64,000 nucleotides of DNA from a virus (Duplodnaviria; Caudoviricetes): positions 997-64,996 of IMG/VR virus record IMGVR_UViG_3300037420_002488. One strand, written 5' to 3'. Within the stretch, counting starts at the first letter, position 1. Every line of letters starts with the position of its first letter. Made by a program: the position numbers and the translations under genes. Below are positions 3,640 through 62,965 of this stretch, in pieces. The notes below the pieces were generated by a model, which had not been told where the DNA came from, did no database searches, and saw only the letters and a list, made by a program, of their open reading frames with translations.

Positions 3640-3815
3640 TCTTCATAGCCTTTCATGTCAACATAAACTTCGCGGCCCTTGCGCTTGTATTCGCGGCCTT
3701 CGACCCAAACCCCCGTTTTGATCTTTCCTTCGATGGCATCCACTGTGAGGCCAGTGATCGCGGCGGCCAAGGGGATGCGAACAAAGCGGGAGGACGAAAC
3801 TACAAACGTGGACAC
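3615..3815 (-). CDS. Excisionase-like protein
   Basis: 66 aa, winged-helix pattern (AAAITGLTVDAIEGKIKTGVW..VYVDM), overlaps the int start. Confidence 0.8.
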   Translation of the reverse strand: MSTFVVSSSRFVRIPLAAAITGLTVDAIEGKIKTGVWVEGREYKRKGREVYVDMKGYEEWVQSETA

Positions 3816-3883
3816 GTCACGCCCTCCAAATCGAAGTGGCCTTGAAGTAGGTCATACTGGTATTCCTATCAATGGAGGAAAGA

Positions 3884-4090
3884 ATGTCGAACGAAAGCGA
3901 ACTCACGCCGGGTCAGATCACCAAGTTGGAACGGGCAGTGGCTCTGACCGATTGGCAGTGGCAGCAGGCCAAGGCGCTTGTTCAAGCCAAGGGGGTGCCG
4001 GAGACTCCTAGCAACCTCTTGGCAATGACTCAGATCATTGCCACGAACTACCTGGCCGAATACCAGCGCTTGGCAGCGAACAAGGCTTGA
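3884..4090 (+). CDS. Small protein, opposite to the early operon
   Basis: GGAGG ending 5 nt before ATG 3884; 68 aa, helical-looking. Confidence 0.65.
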   Translation: MSNESELTPGQITKLERAVALTDWQWQQAKALVQAKGVPETPSNLLAMTQIIATNYLAEYQRLAANKA

Positions 4091-4104
4091 GGTCTGAGTC
4101 GGCA

Positions 4105-4515
4105 TCACACGCTCCCCGTTGGGCCTGAGAGTGCGAACGATCGGCGCTTGCGCGTGAACACCTCGGGCTTGCGCACCTTCCTCGCGCGCCGGTCATGGAA
4201 CAGCGATGCCTCGATCAGGATTGCCCAGGCGCCGCGAGAGTTCAGCACCACGGGCCCGACCTGGTCGTAGAACTTGCAATCTTTGCCCTGAAGTTTGAAG
4301 TAGGGCTCGGGCGACAGAATCGCTTGCACTGCGGCCACGGGCACCGCGATGTAGCTTACGCCGTCGTTCAGTTCGATGGCCTCGTCCAGCGTGTACTGGC
4401 CGCAGCGCTCGCCCACCACCGGGGTGTAGCCTCGATGGGCAACGCCCCAGAAGGTAATGTGCTCGTGGTCCCTGTGAGTGTGCTTCAAGCTGGCGATGTA
4501 GTAGATGTCAGCCAT
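4105..4515 (-). CDS. Hypothetical phage protein
   Basis: AAGGAGG RBS before ATG 4515; overlaps the upstream ORF. Confidence 0.7.
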   Translation of the reverse strand: MADIYYIASLKHTHRDHEHITFWGVAHRGYTPVVGERCGQYTLDEAIELNDGVSYIAVPVAAVQAILSPEPYFKLQGKDCKFYDQVGPVVLNSRGAWAILIEASLFHDRRARKVRKPEVFTRKRRSFALSGPTGSV

Positions 4516-51691: not shown

Positions 51692-54600
51692 ATGCCATCT
51701 GGACTGTCCGACGCATCCCCGCGCTATGTCCCCCTCGATGAACAAGACGCCTCGCAGGCGGTAGTGCAGCCGCCGAAGCGCGAAGAGTTAGTCCGGCCCA
51801 AGGGCTACATGGACTTTGTGGCCCGCAACAAGGCCGCGGCCCCAGCCCCTGCGCCACCCAGCCTGACCGAGAAGTTTGTGGGCGGGGCCAAGGATTTGGC
51901 CTCAACCGTTGGCGATGGCCTGTCCAGTGCGGCGGGCTGGGCGAAATCCCAACTTCAGCCCGAGCACATGGACCTGAGCAATGCTGCGGCGCAAACCTAT
52001 CCGCCGATGGGCAACAACGCCGATGTGGGACAGGGTCCGCAAGGCTTCGAGCGGGTGGGCATGGCGCCGTTGAACGCTGCCAAGCCCGAGAACGGCGCGC
52101 CTGCACCAGTCGACGCCGGCCGTTTCAAGGCCATCAAGGCTGAGCTTGGCGCCATGCCGCGTGCTGAGCGCCTGAAGGTTGGCGAAGACCTCAAGGGGTG
52201 GCAGGCCGAAGCCGTCAAGGTGGCGAATGCGCAGCTCGATCAGGAGCAACAGGGCATGGAGTCCCTGGGCATGAACGCCGTGTCACCCACGCTTGAGGGG
52301 CGGGCCGCGCACTACACCTCGCAGGGCGCCGACGGGCCCACGGCGATGGCGCTGGCCAAGCGCGACATGGGCATGGGCGCGGCAGGCGATGTGCTTCGTA
52401 GTGCCGAGCCCCCAACGGCGAAGGGCAACGAGGCCGGCAACCTTGCCACGGACACAGCCGTGTCGCTGGCCAAGGGTGTGAACTCGGTCGGCACCACAAC
52501 TCTGCGCCTGGCCGACATCCTGACGCCGGGCAACAGCGGCGACGAAGACACCATGAAGGCCGCCACGCTGGGCAAGGCCCTTGACTTCTTCCAGGACCGC
52601 GACCGCGAGCTGGACGGCCTGCTGAGCACCAAGGCAAAGGAAGCCCAGCAGGCCGTGAGCCAGGCCAACGGCTTTTTCTCCGCTGCGGGCAAGGCTTTGT
52701 CCACGCGCTCGGGCTTCCTCATGGCGGCCGAGTCTCTGCCGTCCTCGATCGCCGCCGGGGGCTTTGCCATCAAGGCATCTGAGCGGATCATGGCAACCAA
52801 GCTGGCCCAGGCCGGTGTGCAGCGCATCTCGCAGAATGCAGCATCCAACGTGCTGGCGCGTGGTGGCAGCGCGGAGGCAGCCAAGATCGCCGCCGAGCGG
52901 GCAACGGCCATCGCACACACAGCCACTGCCAGCGCGATGATGGCGGCAGCCGACTTTGCCATGGATGGCACGCAGGCCTATGACGACGTCATGAGCGAGG
53001 TATCGCACATGCGCGAATCGTCGTTCGACAACAGCCCGATGTACAAGGAACTGCGCGCGTCTGGCTTGGATCACGCCACGGCCGCGCGCACTGTGGCGAA
53101 GGAAGCTGCGGCCCGTGCCTTCCTGTATGGCGGCGCCATGTCGGCACTCGTCTCGCCGCTGGGCGCGGGCGTCGAGATGCGCGCTGCTGGCAAGGCACTG
53201 GGCATGGCCAACGTGAAGGCCGCAGGCAGCGGGTCCACGGCCCGCACCTTCCTTGCCTCCCTGGTGAACCCCGAGAGCCTGCCGGCTGTGGTGGCCATCG
53301 AGTCGCTGCAGGAAGGTCTGCAGAGCGGAGGACCCCAGGCCGGCCAGAACCTGGCTGTTCGCCAGACTGCAGACAGCACGAAGAGCCTGTCCGATGGCGT
53401 TGCAGCGGCGGCCGGTGCTGGCGCCGCAACCGGCGGCATCATGGGCGGCGGCATGCACATGGTGGCTGGCGGTGATCACGCCGCGCCCGCAGCCGTCCCT
53501 GATGCTGGCCGTGTCCCCGGCCAGCGCGCCGAACCCGTGCTTGCGCCTGCCAAGCACGATGATGGTCCCATCAGCGCTGACGAGGTGCTGGGCGCGGTGC
53601 AGCCTAAGCCCGCCACACCAGTGGATGCCGCTGCCCACGAAGCCGCGACAAGCCCGACCAACGACCGCCCCGAGCCCACGCAGGCCCAGAAGGAAGCGGG
53701 CAACTACAAGCTGGGCCACACGCGCATCGCCGGACTGGACATCAAGATCGAGAACCCTGAGGGCTCGACGCGCAAGGGCGTGGGCGAAGACGGCAAGCCA
53801 TGGGAAACCACGATGCAGGCCCACTACGGCTACATTGCGGGCACCGAGGCGAAGGACGGCGACAAGCTGGACGTGTTCGTCAAACCCGGCACGCCCGAGG
53901 ACTGGCACGGCGCGGCCTATGTCGTTGACCAGGTCGATCCCAAGACCGGCCAACTCGATGAGCACAAGGTGATCTTCGGTGCAGCCGATCAGGCCGAGGC
54001 CGAGCAGATCTACCGCAGCAACTACAGCAGCGACTGGCAGGGCATGGGCGCCATCACGCGGCTACCCATGCCTGCGTTCAAGGCCTGGGCCAAGAGTGGC
54101 CGCCTCGATGAGCCGCTGGGGGACATCTCTGCGCGGACGCAGCAGTCCGTCAAAGCCACACCTGAGCAAGCGGCAACGACCCAGCCCGAGGCCCCGGCCG
54201 TTGAAGTTGCTGCACCTGACGTGGGTGCTAGCAGCGATGCCACGCCCGCAGCAGGCGCACGCGCTGCCGATCCCGCCAGGCCGAAGGCCAGGCCGCCGCA
54301 GCTCGACCCCGAGCACGACACCATGTTGCAGGCATTAGCCAAGCTGGGCGGCATTCGCCGAGATACCGTGGCCAGCGAATTCGGCCTCAAGCCGGAAGAG
54401 CTGCAGCACGCCGTCAGCACGGGCAAGCTCAAGGGCTACCCCTTCCGTAAGACCGGCGGCATGGACATGGACCAGGCCCTGACCGCGATGTCGGAGGCGG
54501 GCTACTTCGATGGCGTACCCGAGGACCAGCACCGCGCCGTGTTCGAGCAGGCCATCCACGATGAACTGGGCGGCCGCCCACGCCTGACCACTCACGGCCG

Positions 54601-57600
54601 CATGCGCGAAGCCGCCCAGGCCTTCAGCGACAACCAGGAGCAGGCGCGTGCCAGCGCCGAGGCTGATGCCCAAGGTCAGGCCGAGCTGGATGCCGAGCGC
54701 GCCGCCATCATGGCGGAAGCTGGCCTCTCAGATGAGGGGCTGTCCGCCCTCACCGACGACGATATCCGGTATGCTGAAAGCGCCGGGACCACGGACGCCG
54801 AGCACGCGAAGAGCATGCGCGCTATGGGGTTCACCGAAGAGGAAATCGCTGATGAGCTCAAACAACGACAAGGCCCGCAAGGACGCGATCAAGAAGGTAA
54901 TGGCGCTGCCGCCCGAGAAGCGCAAGCGCCTGATGGAACTGGAAGCGCAGCACCGCGGGATGAACGAGCCCGAGGTGACGGCCGAGCAGCGCCAGCAGAT
55001 GCTGGACGAATCCAAGAAGGCACGAAGCGCCCCGGCGAAAAAGTAAAGCCGGGCGAACGCCTCAAGCGCGTCTCCGACTATTTCACGCCCGGCAACATCG
55101 TCAAGGGCTACGGCGGGCACAGCCGCGTCATCTCGTTCGACTGGGTGAAGGGAAGCCCGGGCCGGTTCAATGTCAAGGTTCAATCCGTCGTCAAGGATGG
55201 CGAAGGCTGGAAGGTCGATCCCACAGACGCCCGTGAGCGCGTGCATTCCACCCAGCCGACTGACCGCGAACTGAAGGCCGGGCCCGTCGGGCAGTGGAGC
55301 GAGCCAGCCCTGACCAGCCATACCGAGTCTGACCTGCAGGCCAAGGCCGAGCGCGAGGCCGATGGCGTGAAGGCGGAAGCCAAAGCCAAGGCGACCGATG
55401 CCGCCAAGGTGCGCCAGGCCGACGAGGCCAAGGACAACAAGGCCCGCGCCGACGCCACCGTCGAAGACTTCGAGCTGGGCAAGTCGGCTGACGAACAGAT
55501 GTCCGGCATGGGCGACATGTTCGCGGACAAGCCCGGCAAGGCCAACACCATCTTCACCGAAGACGCCGCAGCCGCGGCCCGCGCGCTGCTGCGCAAGAAG
55601 CTGGGCACACTGAACAGCGGCATTGACCCCGAGATTCTGCAAGCCGGCATCACGCTGGCGGGCTATCACATCGAGCGCGGCGCCCGCACCTTCACGGCGT
55701 ATGCAAAGGCCATGGTCGACGACCTCGGCGAGGCCATCAAGCCCTACCTGAAGTCTTGGTATATGGGGGTCAAGTACGATCCGCGCGCGTCGGGATTCGA
55801 TGGTATGAGCAGCGCCGCCGATGTGGAGGGTGCCGATATCCACGCAATCACCGACAATGCGCCACAGGAGACGAAGGCCGATGTATCAGACACCAGCGCC
55901 GATCTGGAACCAGATCGCAAAGACACAACCAGTGCAAAGCGCGTACTGGCGCAGCCTGATGGAAATGAACCAGCAGGATCTGACCAACGCGCTGGGAAAG
56001 CTGGAAAGCGAGCTGGAAGCCAAGGGAGCCGACGCGGCGACGACGCGGGCGTACCTGCTGGTGGCGCCGCTACTGCGCGAGAACGTGGCGATCAGCCGGT
56101 TTCTGGAGGCTCAACAGTCGAGCGACCTGCGCTCGTGCCTGCCGGAAGTGACGTCGATCAACGAGGCGGTGGCTTTGGCGACCGAGGAATTCCAGTTGAA
56201 ACCGTCTCAGCAGGATCAACTCGCGCAACTGCTAAAGACGGACTGGCACAAGGCGTAGCCAACCGGGCCCAGCGCCAAGCACCCAAGGGCTTCAAGGCCG
56301 CCGACCTCGACAACATCCGCGAGACACTGCCCCTGCTGCAGGGTAAGCAGCAGGAGGATGTGCACCGCGCCGAGGTGCGCTTTGCCGAGCCCGACGGCTA
56401 TGGCATTCTGTTCACAAACGGGACCGGCACGGGCAAGACCTACACAGGCATGGGCGTGGTCAAGCGCCTGGCCATGCAGGGCAAAGACGACGTGCTGATG
56501 GTGGCGCCGTCGGACAAGATCATCGAGGACTGGATCACCACCGGCAAGCGCTTCGGGCTGGACATCACCAAGCTGGCAAGCACCAGCGATTCCGGCAAGG
56601 GCCTGGTCATCACGACCTATGCCAACTTCGGCGACAACAAGACGCTGGCTGATCGCTCGTGGGATGGCGTTGTGCTTGATGAGGCGCACTACCTCATGCA
56701 GGCCGAAGACGGCAAGCCCACGCAGGCCCTGAACGCGCTGCGCGCGATCACCATGCACCCGGACGGCGCTCACACACTGCACGCCATGCGCAACCGCGCC
56801 GATCTGGCGCAGCACGATCAATTGCTCAGCGACATGCGCGCGGCCTCGAAGGTGATCGACAGCGGCGCCAGCAAGGACGAGAAGGCCACGGCCCAAGCTG
56901 CGCTGGACGAGCTCAAGCCGAAGTACGAGGCACTGCACGCCAAGCTGGAAGAGGCGCGCAAGGCCATCAAGGTAGAGGTGGGCAATGCGCAAGGCGCCGA
57001 TCGCACCCGCGTCACCTTCCTGAGCGCTACGCCATGGGCCTACGTGCCGACGGTGGACTGGGCAAACGGCTACCTGTTCGACTACAGCGAAGGCCAGCCT
57101 GCCGACGAGACCAGCCGGGGCTACAACGACGGCAGCAACCGTGAGCGCTTCTTCATGCAGCACTTCGGCTACCGGATGCGCTACAACAAGCTCACCCGGC
57201 CGGACGCCAAGGTGAACGTCGGCCTGATGGAGCGCCAGTTCAATGCCTGGCTGCGCAAGTCTGGCGCGCTGTCCGCCCGCACGCTGGATGTGGCTGCCGA
57301 CTATGACCGCCGCTTCGTGCTGGTCGAGTCCGCCATCGGTGCCCGCATCGATCAGGCGCTGAACTGGATCAGTGAACGCGCCCGCGGCAACCGGGAAGAG
57401 AACATCCCGGCCGACGAGGGAGCCCGCGCGCTGGCCAACGTCCTGGACAAGCGCTTCGACTACCTGTCGCGGCGCTATTTACTGGAAGCGATCAAGGCCG
57501 AAGAGTCGATCAAGTACGTGCGCCAGAACCTGGCCATGGGCCGCAAGGTCGTGGTGTTCCACGACTACAAGAAGGGCGGCGGCTTCAATCCGTTCGATCA

Positions 57601-60600
57601 GCCCGAACTGCCTGCAGGCGGCGATGACCTGGTGGCCGCCGAGCGCGTCGAGAAGTACAACGCCGCGTTGCGCGACTTCAAGGCCGAGTTCAAGGATCTG
57701 CTGGCGCATCCTTTCGCCACGATGGCTTCGCCGATCCAAGCCTACCAGAAGGCTTTCCCGAACGTGCTGCTGTTCAACGGCGACGTGTCGCCCAAGGACC
57801 GGCGCGCGGCCGTGGCGAAGTTCCAGACTGATGACAGCGAGCACAACCTGATCCTGGTGCAGTCGGCCGCCGGCAAGGAAGGCATCAGCCTGCACGACAC
57901 CACGGGCAAGCATCAGCGCGTGCTCTACAACCTGGGTCAGCCCACGCAACCCACCACTGCGATCCAGCAGGAGGGCCGCACCTATCGCACTGGCCAGGTG
58001 ACCAATGCCATCTTCCGCTACTTCAATACCGGCACCAACTGGGAGAAGTGGGCCTTTGCTACGACCATCGCGCAGCGCGCCAGCACGGCCGAGAACCTGG
58101 GCATGGGCGAGCAGGCGCGCGCCCTCAAGGACGCCTTCATTTCGGCATTCGAAGAGGCCGATGCCTACCCGCCTGGGCACGAGGGAGAAGGCACGGGCGG
58201 CAAGGCCCGCGACCAAGCTGCCAATGAAGCCCTGACCGAGTTCGACCGCGCAGTGTCGTTCTACTACGGCACCCAGAAGAAGAGCGCCCGCACCAAGGCC
58301 GCCGAGGGCAAGGACTACTTCGCCACGCCCGAGCCGCTGGGCCTGAAGATGGTCGAGTGGATGAACCCCCATGGTGGCGACCATGTGCTGGAGCCCAGTG
58401 CTGGGCACGGCGCCATCGCGCGCTGGCTGCCCGAGAACACCGAGCGCACGGCCGTCGAGCCGTCCACCACGCTGCGCCCGCGCCTGGCCATGGTGTTCGA
58501 CGGCAAGATCGTGGCATCGAACTTTGAAGACCTGCACATCGCCAACAAGTTCGACGGCATCGTGATGAACCCGCCATTCGGCGTGGGCGGCAAGGTGGCT
58601 ATCGAGCACCTGGACAAGGCTGCCAACCACCTGCGTGATGGCGGCCGGGTCGTGGCGCTGATCCCAACCGGGCCCGCTGCAGACAAGCGCTTCGACAAGT
58701 GGTTCCACGACGAAGAGACCCGCGCCAGCAGGCCACTGTATACCGACGAGCGCCTGGGCCCCATCCATGAGGGCGATGTCTTGACGGGCAGCAAGTCCAT
58801 CAACGGCCTGAAGATGATCGTCGGCCATGTGGACAAGCACCCTGATGGGCGACGCACGGTGCGCCCAAAAGGCGAACTGGTCAAGTCGGGCGTCTGGCTG
58901 AACTTCATCGAGTCGGTGCAGCCCGGGCCGCGATCGGAGACCTACCGACCGGCCGAAGGCCTGCACATGGTGGCCGACATCAAACTGCCGCAGGTGGCAT
59001 TTGAGCGCGCAGGCACGTCAGTGGCCTCGCACGTCGTCGTGCTGGAGAAGCTGGCCAGCGGCACCGAGCCGCCCGTGACGCGTCACATCGACCTGTCGGA
59101 CGCCAAGGACATTCAAGAGCTGTTCGAGCGCATCCGCGACTTGTCCTTGCCGCCTCGCTTGAAGCCCGAAACCCAGGAGGGCAGCGCCGATGCCGATCCC
59201 GTGGCCACGACCTTGAAGAGCGCGGTCAAGCCGTCAAAGACTCAGATTGCCGAGTTCGGCCAGGCGCTGGCCGAGAAGCACGGCATGACCATTGCCGAGC
59301 ACACGACGGGCAAGGGCAAGGTGTTGAAGGGCGTGGTGAAATCCGACATCACGCAGGCCCAGGCCAAGGCGGCCGACGCCTACACGTTCAAGAAGGACGG
59401 CGGCTGGTTCATCCGTGCCGAGCACGTTCCCGCGATGCTGGGCGAAGAGATGCCCGCGTTTTCACTTCCGCCCAGTGCCAACGGCCGTGCCGTCGGGAAG
59501 GACGGTAAGGTGCTCACGATTGGCAAGCTGAAAGCTGATCAGTTCGTCTCGCGCATCGCCAGCAACTGGAAGGGGCTGACCCGCACCAACATCGTGGTTG
59601 TCGACTCGTTCGCCGGGCTGCCGCTGGAGATCATCCACCACGGCCTGCGCAGTGGGGGCGTAAAAACGCTTCAGGAAATCCAAGGGGTTGCGCATAACGG
59701 CAAGGTCTATTTGGTGGCCAACACGATCGCCGATGAAAACGAGTTGCAGACAGCGCTCTTTCACGAGGCCTTCGGTCACCTTGGCGTCAATGCCGTGATG
59801 GGTGCCCGCACGGTCGGCACGCTGTCGTCGCTCATGGATTCTATGGGTGGTTTAAAGGCCATCGAGGTCATGGCCCGGAAAATTCGGACATCCGACACCG
59901 AAACGGTTTGGGATCGCCTGCAGCCCTACATCCGCAACCTTGGCGATCAGGTCGATTCGAAGATGGGGCGCGCCGTGATCGCCGACGAGTTCCTGGCCTT
60001 CGCCGCCCAGGTCAACGACCAGTCGGTGCTGGCCAAATTCAAGGGGTACCTCTCGGATGCGAAGGCGGGCATGGCGCGCTTCGCCCGTGCTGCTGGCCTG
60101 AAGGGGCTGGCCGCGCGCCTGGAGCGAATGACCGATGGCGACGTCGCGGCCTTCGTGCGCGACGCCCGTCGCGCCATCGTCACCGGCCAGGCCCCGCGCA
60201 GCGGCCGGTATGTGATCGCGCGCGCTGATGGCGACAGCATGCCGTCAGCGCACAGCTTGCGCGCGGCCGTAGCCACGTCGCCCGCCGACGGCGCCACCCT
60301 GAAGCCATCGAGCGGCATCCTCGACACGATCTTGCGCAAGGCTGGCGGCACTGTGGTGGCGCGCCTGACCTCGCCAGGCTACACGCGCTTGATCAGCATG
60401 ATGGACCGGGCGCTGGAGTCCTACGGCGGCAAGGCCTACGACTATGCCAAGTCGGGCCTGGTGTCCGATCGCGGCCTGAGCGAGCCGTATATTGAAGCCC
60501 GCGCGGACATGCGCACGGCCATCCGCCGCGGCGCGCGCGAGACCAAGACCATCATCGACAACCTGCAGAGCCTGGACCGCGCTCAGTCACGTATCGCCTA

Positions 60601-62965
60601 CCTGTGGATGAGCGAGAAGCCCGACACCGAGCAAGAGCGCGCCTTGCTGGCCGAGCTGCCGGAAGACAGCCGCACCGTGCTGCTGCAGCTCAAGGACCGC
60701 ATTGAGCAACTGAGCCGCGAGGCCGTCGACCTTGGCCTAATCTCTCAGGACACCTACGAGCGCAACTCGATGGCCTACCTGCACCGCAGCTACAAGCGCT
60801 ACGAGGTCAGCGACGACAAGGCCAAGGTCGTGCGTACGCGCGCCATCAAGATCCTGGGCGACCAGTTCAAGGGGCGCGGCATGCGCGACGACGTGCCCAT
60901 GAGCAGGATCCAGCAGTCAGACTGGTGGGCCCGCAAGGAAGCCCGGGGCAAGGCCGACGACAGCCTGAAGGGTGAGAAGTTCATCCGGCTGGAGCGCCGC
61001 GAGATGCCCGACACCAGCACGGCCGAGCTATTCGAAGAAGGCAAGCCCCGGCCATTGGGGCGCCTTCTCGAGGTGGCCTATTGGCCGGCCAGCGAGGCAC
61101 TGCCATCGAAGTATGCCGACTGGCGCCAGGATGGAACCTGGGAGGCGCGCTTCTTCAACAAGCCCGGCAAGGTGGGCATGTGGCGCGACTTCACGCTGGC
61201 TGAGCGCACGGCCATGGGCGAAATCCAGGAGGTGCGCTACAGCACCGCCAAGACCATGCTGCAGATGACGCGCGACGTCGAGACGGCCCGCCTGCTCGAC
61301 TGGGTGGCCCGCCGCGAATCGCGCCTGCTCGAAGACCAGATCCCCGACGGCCACACCGTGGTGCCCGCCAAGGAAAGCATGCTGCGGTCCTACCTGCCCG
61401 ACGAGTGGGTGCAGGTGCCTGATGCAGGCATCCCTGGCACAGGCGGCCTCAAGCGCTTCGGCAACCTGGCTGGCCGCTTCGTGCCGGGCCCGGTCTGGAA
61501 TGACCTTAGGCAGCTTTCGGGCATGACCGACCGCGGCGATGTGGCCAAGATGTACGACCAGGTGATGAAGGTCTGGAAAATCTCCAAGACCGCCCTGAGC
61601 CCGACCACGCACGTCAACAACGTGATGTCGAACTTCATCTTTGCCGATGCTCACGACGTGCAGGCCAGCCACATCCTGGCCGCCCTGAAGGCTTGGGCCT
61701 CGCACAAGAAGGACAAGCAGGCAGCCGATCTCATTGCCGACTACCAAGACAACGGCGGCGACGGCGGCAAGTTCAACGACGCCGAGCTGCGCGAAGATGT
61801 CATGGGCGAGATGATCGCCGAGCTGGAGCGCGAGGTGGGGAAGGGCAGCCCCACGGCGGCCGTCACCGCGGCGCAGGTGGTCGATCTGGTGCGGCACAAG
61901 GAATTCCGCCAGGCCTTCGCGGCCATTGGCCAGACCAAGACCGCAGGCGTGCTCAAGAAGCCCGCCCAGCAGCTGATCAAGCTGTACGGCCACGAGGACG
62001 AGTTGTTCCGCCTTGCCGCCTTCATCAAGGCCAAAGAGGACGGCCTGACCAGCCGGGCCGCTGGCAAGTTTGCCCACGAGTCGTTCTTGAACTACGACAT
62101 CAACGCGCCCTGGGTGCAGGCCGCCCGTCGGTCTTTCTTTCCGTTCGTGTCGTTCACCTACCGTGCTGTGCCCATGCTGCTGCGCACCTTCGCCGACAAG
62201 CCATGGAAGCTGGCCAAGTACGCCGCAGTGGCGGGCGCCCTGAACGCGCTGGCCTACGGCATGCTGGGCGGCGGTGGCGACGAGGACAAAGAGCGGGCCC
62301 TGCTGCCGGACGAGAAGGCCGGGAAAATTTGGGGCATCTTCCCCAAGCTGATGCGCATGCCCTGGAATGACAGCCACGACTCGCCTGTGTTCCTGGATGT
62401 GCGCCGCTGGATTCCGGCCGGTGACGTGGTGGACATGGGCCAGCAGCACACGGCGCTGCCGGTGCCGTCACCCCTGATGCCCGGCGGGCCGCTGGTGATC
62501 CTGGCCGAGTTGGTGATGAACCGCTCGACCTTCACGGGCAAGGACATCACCAAGGAGACAGACACCCTGGCAGAGAAGTACGGCAAGGTGGGCGACTACC
62601 TGTGGAAGGCCGCGGCACCGAACTTCCCCGGCATCCCAGGCACCTATGCAACCGACTCGATCATGGGTGCAGGCAGCGGCAAGACGGATCCATTCGGTCG
62701 GGAGCAGTCGCTTGGCCAGGCGACCCTGTCATCCGTGGGGGTCAAGCTGGGCAGCTACCCGATCGACGTTCTCACCCAGAACGCCGCCAGAGACGCCAAC
62801 GCCAAGGTGGCCGAACTGCGAAGGGCGATCAAGGCCGACGGCCGCCAACTGGGGCGGAAGGGCATCAGCCGCGAAGAGTTTGACGAGCGAACTGATCGCA
62901 ACAGGGACAAGATCAGCAAGATCAACCGAGGCCTGAGCGAGAAGCTGAAGCAGGGCGAACAGTGA
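51692..62965 (+). CDS. 3757-aa DarB-like polyvalent internal virion protein
   Basis: InPase-like (~53680-54100, GNYKLGH..ENPEGS..DGDKLDVF..DEHKV), SF2 helicase (GTGTGKT 56421, DEAH 56678, QQEGR 57965), N6-MTase (EPSAGHG, NPPF 58568), HEAFGH zincin motif (59762), LPD-like C-terminus. Confidence 0.88.
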   Translation: MPSGLSDASPRYVPLDEQDASQAVVQPPKREELVRPKGYMDFVARNKAAAPAPAPPSLTEKFVGGAKDLASTVGDGLSSAAGWAKSQLQPEHMDLSNAAAQTYPPMGNNADVGQGPQGFERVGMAPLNAAKPENGAPAPVDAGRFKAIKAELGAMPRAERLKVGEDLKGWQAEAVKVANAQLDQEQQGMESLGMNAVSPTLEGRAAHYTSQGADGPTAMALAKRDMGMGAAGDVLRSAEPPTAKGNEAGNLATDTAVSLAKGVNSVGTTTLRLADILTPGNSGDEDTMKAATLGKALDFFQDRDRELDGLLSTKAKEAQQAVSQANGFFSAAGKALSTRSGFLMAAESLPSSIAAGGFAIKASERIMATKLAQAGVQRISQNAASNVLARGGSAEAAKIAAERATAIAHTATASAMMAAADFAMDGTQAYDDVMSEVSHMRESSFDNSPMYKELRASGLDHATAARTVAKEAAARAFLYGGAMSALVSPLGAGVEMRAAGKALGMANVKAAGSGSTARTFLASLVNPESLPAVVAIESLQEGLQSGGPQAGQNLAVRQTADSTKSLSDGVAAAAGAGAATGGIMGGGMHMVAGGDHAAPAAVPDAGRVPGQRAEPVLAPAKHDDGPISADEVLGAVQPKPATPVDAAAHEAATSPTNDRPEPTQAQKEAGNYKLGHTRIAGLDIKIENPEGSTRKGVGEDGKPWETTMQAHYGYIAGTEAKDGDKLDVFVKPGTPEDWHGAAYVVDQVDPKTGQLDEHKVIFGAADQAEAEQIYRSNYSSDWQGMGAITRLPMPAFKAWAKSGRLDEPLGDISARTQQSVKATPEQAATTQPEAPAVEVAAPDVGASSDATPAAGARAADPARPKARPPQLDPEHDTMLQALAKLGGIRRDTVASEFGLKPEELQHAVSTGKLKGYPFRKTGGMDMDQALTAMSEAGYFDGVPEDQHRAVFEQAIHDELGGRPRLTTHGRMREAAQAFSDNQEQARASAEADAQGQAELDAERAAIMAEAGLSDEGLSALTDDDIRYAESAGTTDAEHAKSMRAMGFTEEEIADELKQRQGPQGRDQEGNGAAAREAQAPDGTGSAAPRDERARGDGRAAPADAGRIQEGTKRPGEKVKPGERLKRVSDYFTPGNIVKGYGGHSRVISFDWVKGSPGRFNVKVQSVVKDGEGWKVDPTDARERVHSTQPTDRELKAGPVGQWSEPALTSHTESDLQAKAEREADGVKAEAKAKATDAAKVRQADEAKDNKARADATVEDFELGKSADEQMSGMGDMFADKPGKANTIFTEDAAAAARALLRKKLGTLNSGIDPEILQAGITLAGYHIERGARTFTAYAKAMVDDLGEAIKPYLKSWYMGVKYDPRASGFDGMSSAADVEGADIHAITDNAPQETKADVSDTSADLEPDRKDTTSAKRVLAQPDGNEPAGSDQRAGKAGKRAGSQGSRRGDDAGVPAGGAATARERGDQPVSGGSTVERPALVPAGSDVDQRGGGFGDRGIPVETVSAGSTRATAKDGLAQGVANRAQRQAPKGFKAADLDNIRETLPLLQGKQQEDVHRAEVRFAEPDGYGILFTNGTGTGKTYTGMGVVKRLAMQGKDDVLMVAPSDKIIEDWITTGKRFGLDITKLASTSDSGKGLVITTYANFGDNKTLADRSWDGVVLDEAHYLMQAEDGKPTQALNALRAITMHPDGAHTLHAMRNRADLAQHDQLLSDMRAASKVIDSGASKDEKATAQAALDELKPKYEALHAKLEEARKAIKVEVGNAQGADRTRVTFLSATPWAYVPTVDWANGYLFDYSEGQPADETSRGYNDGSNRERFFMQHFGYRMRYNKLTRPDAKVNVGLMERQFNAWLRKSGALSARTLDVAADYDRRFVLVESAIGARIDQALNWISERARGNREENIPADEGARALANVLDKRFDYLSRRYLLEAIKAEESIKYVRQNLAMGRKVVVFHDYKKGGGFNPFDQPELPAGGDDLVAAERVEKYNAALRDFKAEFKDLLAHPFATMASPIQAYQKAFPNVLLFNGDVSPKDRRAAVAKFQTDDSEHNLILVQSAAGKEGISLHDTTGKHQRVLYNLGQPTQPTTAIQQEGRTYRTGQVTNAIFRYFNTGTNWEKWAFATTIAQRASTAENLGMGEQARALKDAFISAFEEADAYPPGHEGEGTGGKARDQAANEALTEFDRAVSFYYGTQKKSARTKAAEGKDYFATPEPLGLKMVEWMNPHGGDHVLEPSAGHGAIARWLPENTERTAVEPSTTLRPRLAMVFDGKIVASNFEDLHIANKFDGIVMNPPFGVGGKVAIEHLDKAANHLRDGGRVVALIPTGPAADKRFDKWFHDEETRASRPLYTDERLGPIHEGDVLTGSKSINGLKMIVGHVDKHPDGRRTVRPKGELVKSGVWLNFIESVQPGPRSETYRPAEGLHMVADIKLPQVAFERAGTSVASHVVVLEKLASGTEPPVTRHIDLSDAKDIQELFERIRDLSLPPRLKPETQEGSADADPVATTLKSAVKPSKTQIAEFGQALAEKHGMTIAEHTTGKGKVLKGVVKSDITQAQAKAADAYTFKKDGGWFIRAEHVPAMLGEEMPAFSLPPSANGRAVGKDGKVLTIGKLKADQFVSRIASNWKGLTRTNIVVVDSFAGLPLEIIHHGLRSGGVKTLQEIQGVAHNGKVYLVANTIADENELQTALFHEAFGHLGVNAVMGARTVGTLSSLMDSMGGLKAIEVMARKIRTSDTETVWDRLQPYIRNLGDQVDSKMGRAVIADEFLAFAAQVNDQSVLAKFKGYLSDAKAGMARFARAAGLKGLAARLERMTDGDVAAFVRDARRAIVTGQAPRSGRYVIARADGDSMPSAHSLRAAVATSPADGATLKPSSGILDTILRKAGGTVVARLTSPGYTRLISMMDRALESYGGKAYDYAKSGLVSDRGLSEPYIEARADMRTAIRRGARETKTIIDNLQSLDRAQSRIAYLWMSEKPDTEQERALLAELPEDSRTVLLQLKDRIEQLSREAVDLGLISQDTYERNSMAYLHRSYKRYEVSDDKAKVVRTRAIKILGDQFKGRGMRDDVPMSRIQQSDWWARKEARGKADDSLKGEKFIRLERREMPDTSTAELFEEGKPRPLGRLLEVAYWPASEALPSKYADWRQDGTWEARFFNKPGKVGMWRDFTLAERTAMGEIQEVRYSTAKTMLQMTRDVETARLLDWVARRESRLLEDQIPDGHTVVPAKESMLRSYLPDEWVQVPDAGIPGTGGLKRFGNLAGRFVPGPVWNDLRQLSGMTDRGDVAKMYDQVMKVWKISKTALSPTTHVNNVMSNFIFADAHDVQASHILAALKAWASHKKDKQAADLIADYQDNGGDGGKFNDAELREDVMGEMIAELEREVGKGSPTAAVTAAQVVDLVRHKEFRQAFAAIGQTKTAGVLKKPAQQLIKLYGHEDELFRLAAFIKAKEDGLTSRAAGKFAHESFLNYDINAPWVQAARRSFFPFVSFTYRAVPMLLRTFADKPWKLAKYAAVAGALNALAYGMLGGGGDEDKERALLPDEKAGKIWGIFPKLMRMPWNDSHDSPVFLDVRRWIPAGDVVDMGQQHTALPVPSPLMPGGPLVILAELVMNRSTFTGKDITKETDTLAEKYGKVGDYLWKAAAPNFPGIPGTYATDSIMGAGSGKTDPFGREQSLGQATLSSVGVKLGSYPIDVLTQNAARDANAKVAELRRAIKADGRQLGRKGISREEFDERTDRNRDKISKINRGLSEKLKQGEQ
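54852..55046 (+). CDS. Nested +1-frame gene, 64 aa
   Basis: GAGGA RBS, ATG, TAA; hand count 56/64 codons end in G/C versus about 24/64 in the host frame. Confidence 0.7.
   Translation: MSSNNDKARKDAIKKVMALPPEKRKRLMELEAQHRGMNEPEVTAEQRQQMLDESKKARSAPAKK
55881..56258 (+). CDS. Nested +1-frame gene, 125 aa
   Basis: AGGAG 10 nt upstream, ATG, TAG; typical CTG/GCG/GAG codons, amphipathic helices; host frame reads as disordered G/A/R/D. Confidence 0.75.
   Translation: MYQTPAPIWNQIAKTQPVQSAYWRSLMEMNQQDLTNALGKLESELEAKGADAATTRAYLLVAPLLRENVAISRFLEAQQSSDLRSCLPEVTSINEAVALATEEFQLKPSQQDQLAQLLKTDWHKA

Follow-up and report, generated by a model that had tools for sequence, protein, structure and literature searches.

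A putative small gene overprinted (+1 frame) on a linker between domains of a giant DarB-like provirus gene

Out-of-frame genes embedded within longer genes occur in phiX174, where B lies in A and E lies in D. In these overlaps both frames encode functional folded or essential sequence, which is explained by extreme genome compression. The subject of the present report is a 64-codon open reading frame (ORF), designated hid1 (positions 54852-55046, + strand), located inside a giant gene of the provirus record IMGVR_UViG_3300037420_002488; the stretch of 64,000 nucleotides that we analyzed (positions 997 to 64,996 of the record) is referred to below as the window. In contrast to the phiX174 overlaps, that of hid1 appears to use a tolerant linker in a 65-kb genome.

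Two other described systems resemble this locus more specifically. In phage lambda, Rz1 lies inside Rz (embedded class, PMC6139136; genetics, PMC5295617) and, as proposed for hid1, it is a complete small gene that has a start of its own and is read from the same strand as the larger phage gene around it, in the +1 frame; a single late mRNA yields the Rz and Rz1 products. However, Rz and Rz1 are partners in one function and both of their frames are constrained, whereas the host frame of hid1 appears to be an unconstrained spacer of a multi-enzyme protein of 3,757 residues. Moreover, hid1 is predicted to encode a basic helical peptide of cytoplasmic type which, unlike Rz1, lacks a lipoprotein signal. 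The second system is comS of Bacillus subtilis, a regulator gene of approx. 46 codons located in a distinct frame of the giant modular gene srfAB (PMC12915044). It is transcribed together with the giant gene, and the function of the small protein is separate from the enzyme chemistry. The two cases differ in that comS overlaps a catalytic module and hid1 a linker; in addition, comS is bacterial, confined to Bacillus, and has no sequence similarity to hid1. Of the two, comS/srfAB is the closer parallel to the arrangement of hid1.

The largest gene of the window (51692-62965, + strand) encodes a product of 3,757 residues, and hid1 is placed in its +1 frame. The start codon (ATG) is at 54852 and the stop codon (TAA) at 55044-55046, and a Shine-Dalgarno (SD)-like GAGGA (54839-54843) is found 8 nt before the ATG. 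The +1 frame is open stop-to-stop from 54648, with 68 open codons preceding the ATG. The 64 codons plus TAA specify a basic product containing the motif LPPEKRKRLMELEAQHRG. The initial annotation, made from the sequence alone, had described a ribosome binding site, an ATG and a stop in the +1 frame, an excess of G/C-ending codons over the host frame, a charged helical 64-mer as the product, and a disordered linker as the host reading, and each of these elements was reproduced. Codons ending in G or C make up 56 of the 64 codons of the +1 frame versus 24 of the 63 of the host frame; the product has an isoelectric point (pI) of 10.0, a net charge of +6 and three predicted helices; and the host reading is of low complexity (G/A/R/D/E/Q/P), with 3 aliphatic residues in 63.

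The number of G/C-ending codons (GC3) in the host frame of the giant gene averages 52.4 +/- 6.7 per 64 codons. The two lowest segments, both with a value of 23, are the hid1 stretch and the region of approx. 55830-56310, while the minimum in the ordinary Ala/Pro-rich linkers of the gene is 42 (a fraction of at least 0.63). Scored by codon log-odds, the +1 frame has +0.61 per codon and the host frame -0.54, as compared with a mean of +0.52 for the host gene. In a synonymous resampling, in which the host peptide was kept fixed and codons were redrawn from the gene's own usage, the expected host GC3 over hid1 was 0.79 +/- 0.05, versus the observed 0.37 (z = -8.4). The same deficit was seen in all seven other nested copies tested (z from -2.6 to -10.7), and across the eight copies the host GC3 is 0.31-0.43. 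Openness of the +1 frame is by itself within chance, since in the resamplings it had P = 0.20 in the window and 0.78-0.99 in the relatives. Milder dips of host GC3 at 53252-53671 and 54092-54331 (0.63-0.73, with high first-position GC) are ordinary Ala/Pro-rich linkers, from which the full frame swap is absent.

The start signals recur in the family. A strict SD-like site (GAGGA, AGGAG or AGGGG) is present in all 12 copies that lie in giant-gene or host-like frames, and the start codon is ATG in each of them except the copy of locus L035 (GTG). The spacer is 6-8 nt in the six copies measured. By comparison, such a site precedes 4.4% of the 6,674 +1-frame ATG or GTG codons of related giant genes, as against 8/8 of the family members scored. 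In locus L071 the SD site is present despite a differing host motif. The codon signature, SD site and homology of hid1 exceed chance.

In order to place hid1 among related elements, we retrieved 80 viral loci (designated by L numbers) with a conserved 100-residue domain of the giant protein. In L061, the +1 frame contained a match to the hid1 peptide (46% over 59 residues), and the host reading of the same DNA matched this locus far more weakly. A two-peptide profile (window and L061) was then searched against the three forward frames of all loci; the matches next in rank were +1-frame ORFs of L035 and L071, in the corresponding position. L067 and L030 were added by inspection of the profile matches together with the host motif, L082 (a metagenome-assembled genome of Proteobacteria) by a scan of 185,579 species genomes, and the nested copies of L083, L092 and L095 via a lookup of called proteins. 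The overprinted layout, that is a complete ORF inside a longer ORF on the same strand but in another frame, was thereby found in the window and in nine other contigs, in all nine of which the giant frame is open across the nested ORF. Five of these copies (L061, L082, L083, L092 and L095) group with that of the window, while four (L030, L035, L067 and L071) are distant and lie behind different upstream modules. The ORF is present in 6/6 loci that have the hid1-type linker.

The host-frame surroundings of the nested ORF are also recurrent. In the window, the host motif GFTEEEIADE (54827-54856, + strand) contains the SD site in its Glu codons and the nested ATG in its Asp-Glu codons. GFTEEEIA or a variant of it lies directly 5′ of the ORF in the six first cases (the window, L061, L035, L071, L067 and L030), and this motif, unchanged or in a similar form, is found ahead of the nested ORF in L061, L082, L083, L092, L095, L030, L067 and L035. 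The host-frame reading over hid1 (54857-55045, + strand; approximately residues 1056-1118) is open, and its sequence is not conserved. In all nine relatives, the linker with the nested copy ends at the host motif GLTLxAQTPEDL or its variants. In four of the five relatives first found, the end of the ORF falls inside this motif, in L067 the stop codon is placed approx. 40 nt before it, and in the window an extra host domain intervenes. This domain of approx. 90 residues (KPGERLKRVSDYF...; 55046-55315) sits between the nested stop codon and the LTSHTESDLQAK module, and it is absent from L061 and the other relatives. We also considered an upstream host module travelling with the nested gene, and rejected it; among the 80 related viral loci it is shared only by L061.

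Several further searches were unproductive. A single-protein scan of IMG/VR, an upstream-module scan and a degenerate DNA pattern revealed nothing beyond the contig of L061, and none of the 599 pattern matches from a scan of metagenome contigs with alignment A2 was confirmed. No tblastn match to the peptide or to the family members was obtained in 50,697 phage records or 72,556 plasmids; therefore, no cultured phage with the hid1 family was found.

Conservation of the two frames was compared in two subgroups of five sequences each (20 pairs). Amino acid identity is higher in the +1 frame than in the host frame in 20/20 pairs. The ratio of nonsynonymous to synonymous substitution rates (dN/dS) in the +1 frame is below 1 in 17/20 pairs (0.27-0.98), as compared with approx. 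0.9-2.0 in the host frame. Across four phylogenetically independent pairs, the changes at the three +1 codon positions number 61/58/84 (position 3 versus position 2, p = 0.018), so that the third position of the host frame changes least, the reverse of what would be expected from coding in that frame. Single pairs are weak, yet the direction is uniform across all of them. We also estimated by resampling the probability that the host frame would be open given the +1 peptide, which is 0.085 in the window and 0.01-0.43 per locus, with a product over five lineages of approx. 4e-6. Both frames are thus maintained, selection apparently acting on the sequence in the +1 frame and only on openness in the host frame. 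The DNA would therefore be dual-coding, with the linker as a passive "shadow".

Relatives of hid1 were also detected outside the giant gene. A search of 1.84 billion representative proteins with a profile derived exclusively from nested ORFs (A1, six sequences) yielded small called proteins, 44-81 residues in length and with whole-library E-values as low as 4.7e-9; the matches include P0008 (4.7e-9), P0011, P0012, P0018, P0019, P0022 (7.7e-5), P0027 and P0028. Further called small proteins were added by a second search. The family (44-86 residues, median 50; median pI 10.6 and net charge +9) has the common core motif LPxEKRxRLxxLEAxxRG. The nested copies share with P0028 and P0032, in which the host frame is broken or starts just before the ORF, the N-terminus M-x-S-P-D-K, and BLASTP of the hid1 product gave 58% identity over 33 residues with P0032 and 56% over 36 residues with P0028. 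Long profile matches (P0006, P0009, P0010, P0014 and others) were rejected as relatives; they are repeat proteins that have only a generic helix-cap motif.

The called homologues occur in three settings. Those of L083, L092 and L095 are nested in a giant frame, and those of L084, L089, L091, L093 and L094 lie in a broken or truncated host-like frame. P0008 (L085/L086), P0022 (L087/L088) and P0033 (L090) are free-standing, with no other open frame across the gene and with a normal coding GC distribution by codon position; the L090 gene adjoins a tyrosine integrase gene in an element with a Mob_Pre relaxase. As free-standing genes, family members occur in integrative or mobilisable elements. In public protein sets the family is represented only by copies that a gene caller could pick up at a contig end or because the host frame was broken.

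Some of these loci have features of their own. In L091 (5980-6150) the nested gene is intact and the host frame is broken (LGFSE-stop-DI), and in L093 (1150-1420) an intact nested gene is accompanied by a host frame truncated to approx. 100 codons. Both copies are found among defence-type genes (type ISP restriction enzyme, PLD, MZB), and they represent either decayed polyvalent genes or unfused precursors. L089 carries two hid1-like small genes in tandem (3692-3925 and 4001-4153) downstream of a D5_N/DUF5906 primase gene. Each of them overlaps a host-like frame ending in EGL(T/I)xPTxQD; the second such frame opens with GFMDQEISDE immediately ahead of the nested ATG, not far from the end of the contig.

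These observations make it very probable that hid1 (54852-55046) truly encodes a protein and is overprinted, in the +1 frame, on a linker between domains of the DarB-like gene. The central proposal of the initial annotation, that a real overprinted gene accounts for the linker as its shadow, is upheld by the recurrence of the ORF in the same frame, by the better conservation of the +1 peptide in all 20 pairs (the frame-specific comparison which it had suggested as a check), by the SD site in 12/12 copies and by the stand-alone homologues. Its expectation that standard annotation would miss the gene also held, as the product is absent from Pfam and PHROGs and from the phage and plasmid records searched. 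Gene callers do not permit a gene within a gene, which accounts for the absence of the product from Pfam and PHROGs. On these grounds, the family of small proteins to which hid1 belongs would be new and unannotated, and its arrangement of a known kind.

According to the mechanism we propose, ribosomes would start internally at GAGGA-N8-ATG on the mRNA of the giant gene and would produce a basic three-helix protein of 64 residues, while ribosomes translating the host frame would pass through these bases as a spacer, which can vary in sequence provided that no stop codon interrupts it. Under this scheme the host frame would be selected for openness alone, and the +1 frame for the amino acid sequence of its product. 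No promoter-like site or terminator was found on the plus strand at 54400-55300, and in the absence of an internal promoter hid1 would be read from the giant gene's mRNA. The RNA around the hid1 start folds no better than shuffled sequences (z = 0.74).

Several points weigh against the overprinted gene. Its translation, and the fold and activity of its product, are predictions. The contrast in dN/dS between the frames is modest in pairwise comparison, partly saturated and distorted by the overlap of the frames, and the SD site is in part encoded by conserved Glu-Glu codons of the host. No match at curated cut-off was obtained with the product in Pfam, PHROGs or PDB sequence profiles, and no function is suggested by these searches. 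The product is short, charged and helical, and its core motif resembles the common LTPEQR-like helix-capping repeat, which is why some of the profile matches are repeat proteins and not relatives. Finally, the homologues of L084, L089, L091, L093 and L094 retain relics of the host motifs, and these seemingly free copies could be decayed fragments; because a lookup of called ORFs favours intact copies, they are weak evidence of independent function.

Four other explanations of the data were weighed. The +1 frame may be a fossil, left by a once independent small gene that was swallowed when neighbouring genes fused into the giant ORF and that is no longer translated or useful. We regard this as unlikely, because the codon signature, start signals and peptide motif persist across diverged lineages, with peptide identities as low as 17-30% and unrelated upstream host modules. 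A dead frame would be expected to drift to host codon usage, but the host GC3 is still 0.31-0.43 in eight nested copies; likewise, the better conservation of the +1 frame in every pair and a host dN/dS of approx. 1-2 do not fit a fossil. On the other side, the +1 ORF would be open by chance in most relatives (P = 0.78-0.99), and the cassettes with a broken host frame (L091, L093 and L094) show that such regions do get rearranged. Still less probable is that the ORF is nothing but a chance product of a compositional quirk of a low-complexity linker, with the +1 frame not under selection. Alternative-frame ORFs are common in DNA of 63% GC, and the +1 frame was open in 20-99% of resamplings, but amino acid composition does not account for the GC3 of 0.37 (z = -8.4), and the ordinary Ala/Pro-rich linkers of the giant gene stay at 0.63 or above. 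The E-values of the nested-only profile (down to 4.7e-9 in the whole library) and the recurrence of the SD site against a base rate of 4.4% also speak against it.

A programmed +1 ribosomal frameshift near 54850, with termination at 55044, would give a product of approx. 1,050 N-terminal residues followed by a helical tail, and stop codons do not exclude such a product, as 68 open +1 codons precede the ATG in the window. We consider this very improbable as well, because no shift-prone site was seen (no slippery or hungry-codon site upstream by eye; no formal motif scan was run), because in L071 the +1 frame is open for just 8 codons before the ATG, and because the homologues found outside the giant gene have their start at the equivalent Met and share the N-terminal residues that follow. 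An SD site at initiation distance in every nested copy points the same way. The least credible of the alternatives is a pair of compensating frameshift errors in the assembly, which would make the peptide an in-frame part of the giant protein; apart from the codon signature itself, nothing supports it. A 45-kb contig from a public metagenome run (depth approx. 142) is identical to the window over 54400-56400, and a contig of another study agrees with it at every position of 54806-54956, a segment that includes the change of frame in the codon signature. The provirus occurs at high depth in soil or rhizosphere samples. The +1 ORF reaches its stop codon before host-type codon usage resumes, the two-frame layout is repeated in nine independent contigs, and an all-length profile search gave no giant protein that carries the peptide in frame. 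Compensating errors, which the initial annotation had named as an outcome that would overturn its proposal, are effectively excluded by the two identical contigs, the +1 stop codon and the same layout in independent relatives.

If hid1 is the overprinted gene that we propose, its product would be a small helical protein. AlphaFold2 (AF2), run with an alignment of 21 sequences, predicted three helices with a confidence score (predicted local distance difference test, pLDDT) of 79.8 overall and approx. 91 in the first hairpin. The ESM Atlas contained nothing usable for the product, and a Foldseek search of the PDB gave no match for the predicted fold. The best Z of VIA-align was 5.0, among non-specific generic helical hairpins. 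On account of the charge and the helical hairpin of the model, we suggest, though only tentatively, that binding of nucleic acid or of an acidic partner is its most likely activity. A dedicated chaperone, inhibitor or adaptor of the giant protein, as had been envisaged initially, seems less likely, since no giant gene is present in the fetched neighbourhood of the free-standing copies. With low confidence, we suggest that the role of hid1 would serve mobile elements generally rather than the giant protein specifically.

The provirus record comprises 64,996 bases (98% complete, 63% GC). Its giant gene was classified as DarB-like on the basis of the ORF list, Pfam and DNA similarity. The protein contains an InPase domain (residues 664-801), a superfamily 2 (SF2)/SNF2-type helicase (approx. 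1554-2153; Pfam ResIII/Helicase_C) and a methyltransferase (approx. 2269-2342; Pfam MTS). It therefore combines several enzymatic domains, including an SF2 helicase and an N6-methyltransferase, in one phage polypeptide, and this domain set matches phage polyvalent proteins as described in PMC5512222. The nearest annotated relatives of the gene are "DarB-like antirestriction" genes, which are found in Agrobacterium phage Atu_ph08, Sinorhizobium phage PBC5 and phages of Ralstonia, Burkholderia and Pseudomonas. In the PBC5 locus (L012; IMGVR_UViG_638276813_000001) the giant frame is open only to locus position 3645. GenBank splits this region into orf33 and orf34, while RefSeq calls one DarB-like gene, and the interruption may be a real break or a sequencing frameshift.

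A literature search retrieved no report of nested genes in DarB-like or polyvalent genes. In the survey of polyvalent proteins (PMC5512222) the words "overlapping", "frameshift" and "linker" are absent, and "nested" occurs twice, referring to a hairpin structure. The hid1 family would be a second, independent nested family in DarB-like anti-restriction genes, which lends weight to the idea that the long "disordered linkers" in polyvalent proteins are more than spacers. The locus would also offer a natural case of asymmetric dual coding, useful for testing methods of overlap detection and ideas on the growth of giant genes. A small, very basic protein made together with a putatively injected anti-defence enzyme is, in addition, a candidate new player in phage-host conflict.

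The other nested ORF of the window (55881-56258; 125 residues from the ATG at 55881, stop-to-stop from 55821) lies just before the helicase core. The host frame is open across it in 16/16 relatives checked. In most of the 80 relatives the GC3 swap is seen in a +1 ORF at this helicase-core linker, and 47 of these cluster by BLASTP. Same-frame conservation was confirmed, and 31 called homologues of 87-145 residues are present in public protein sets; no Pfam or PHROG match was found for it. hid1 and this ORF have in common the +1 frame, the layout in which the linker is the shadow, and the lack of annotation. They differ in that hid1 occupies another linker approx. 0.8 kb upstream and specifies a much smaller product, with no sequence similarity between the two. 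The hid1 family, found in 6/81 related viral loci, is far rarer than the helicase-core ORF, which occurs in most loci.

It is possible, with the chances slightly against it, that the inter-domain linkers of DarB-like genes systematically host overprinted small genes of several unrelated families, each in the +1 frame of a linker whose "disordered" reading would be its out-of-frame shadow, that the giant genes grew by module fusion across small genes which stayed functional, and that the products form an accessory set co-made from one mRNA. The LPxEKRxRL family, the helicase-core family and at least two more clusters in the relatives may fit such a scheme. If it were true, hid1 could be a DNA-binding partner delivered with the giant protein or acting with it.

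In the case of Atu_ph08 (NC_070876.1), an unannotated +1 ORF of 132 codons (L096 2739-3134, equal to L011 3239-3634; approx. 102 residues from the ATG) was found directly after the conserved domain of the DarB-like gene, which encodes 4,877 residues. The ORF has coding-type GC by codon position (0.60/0.51/0.80), and in RefSeq the giant gene alone is annotated at this site. A related copy in L002 gave a sub-threshold match to TnpV (E 0.012). As a cultured phage, Atu_ph08 is a tractable system for the nested genes of the DarB-like family.

Further clusters of +1 ORFs with a strong GC3 swap were observed in other linkers of the giant gene. They comprise ORFs of L011 (527-910), L014 (485-850), L023 (557-958), L069 (818-1369) and L074 (542-919), of L041 (1697-2032) and L042 (1607-2080), and of L005 (1175-1576) and L006 (1199-1537), and such clusters may represent additional nested gene families.

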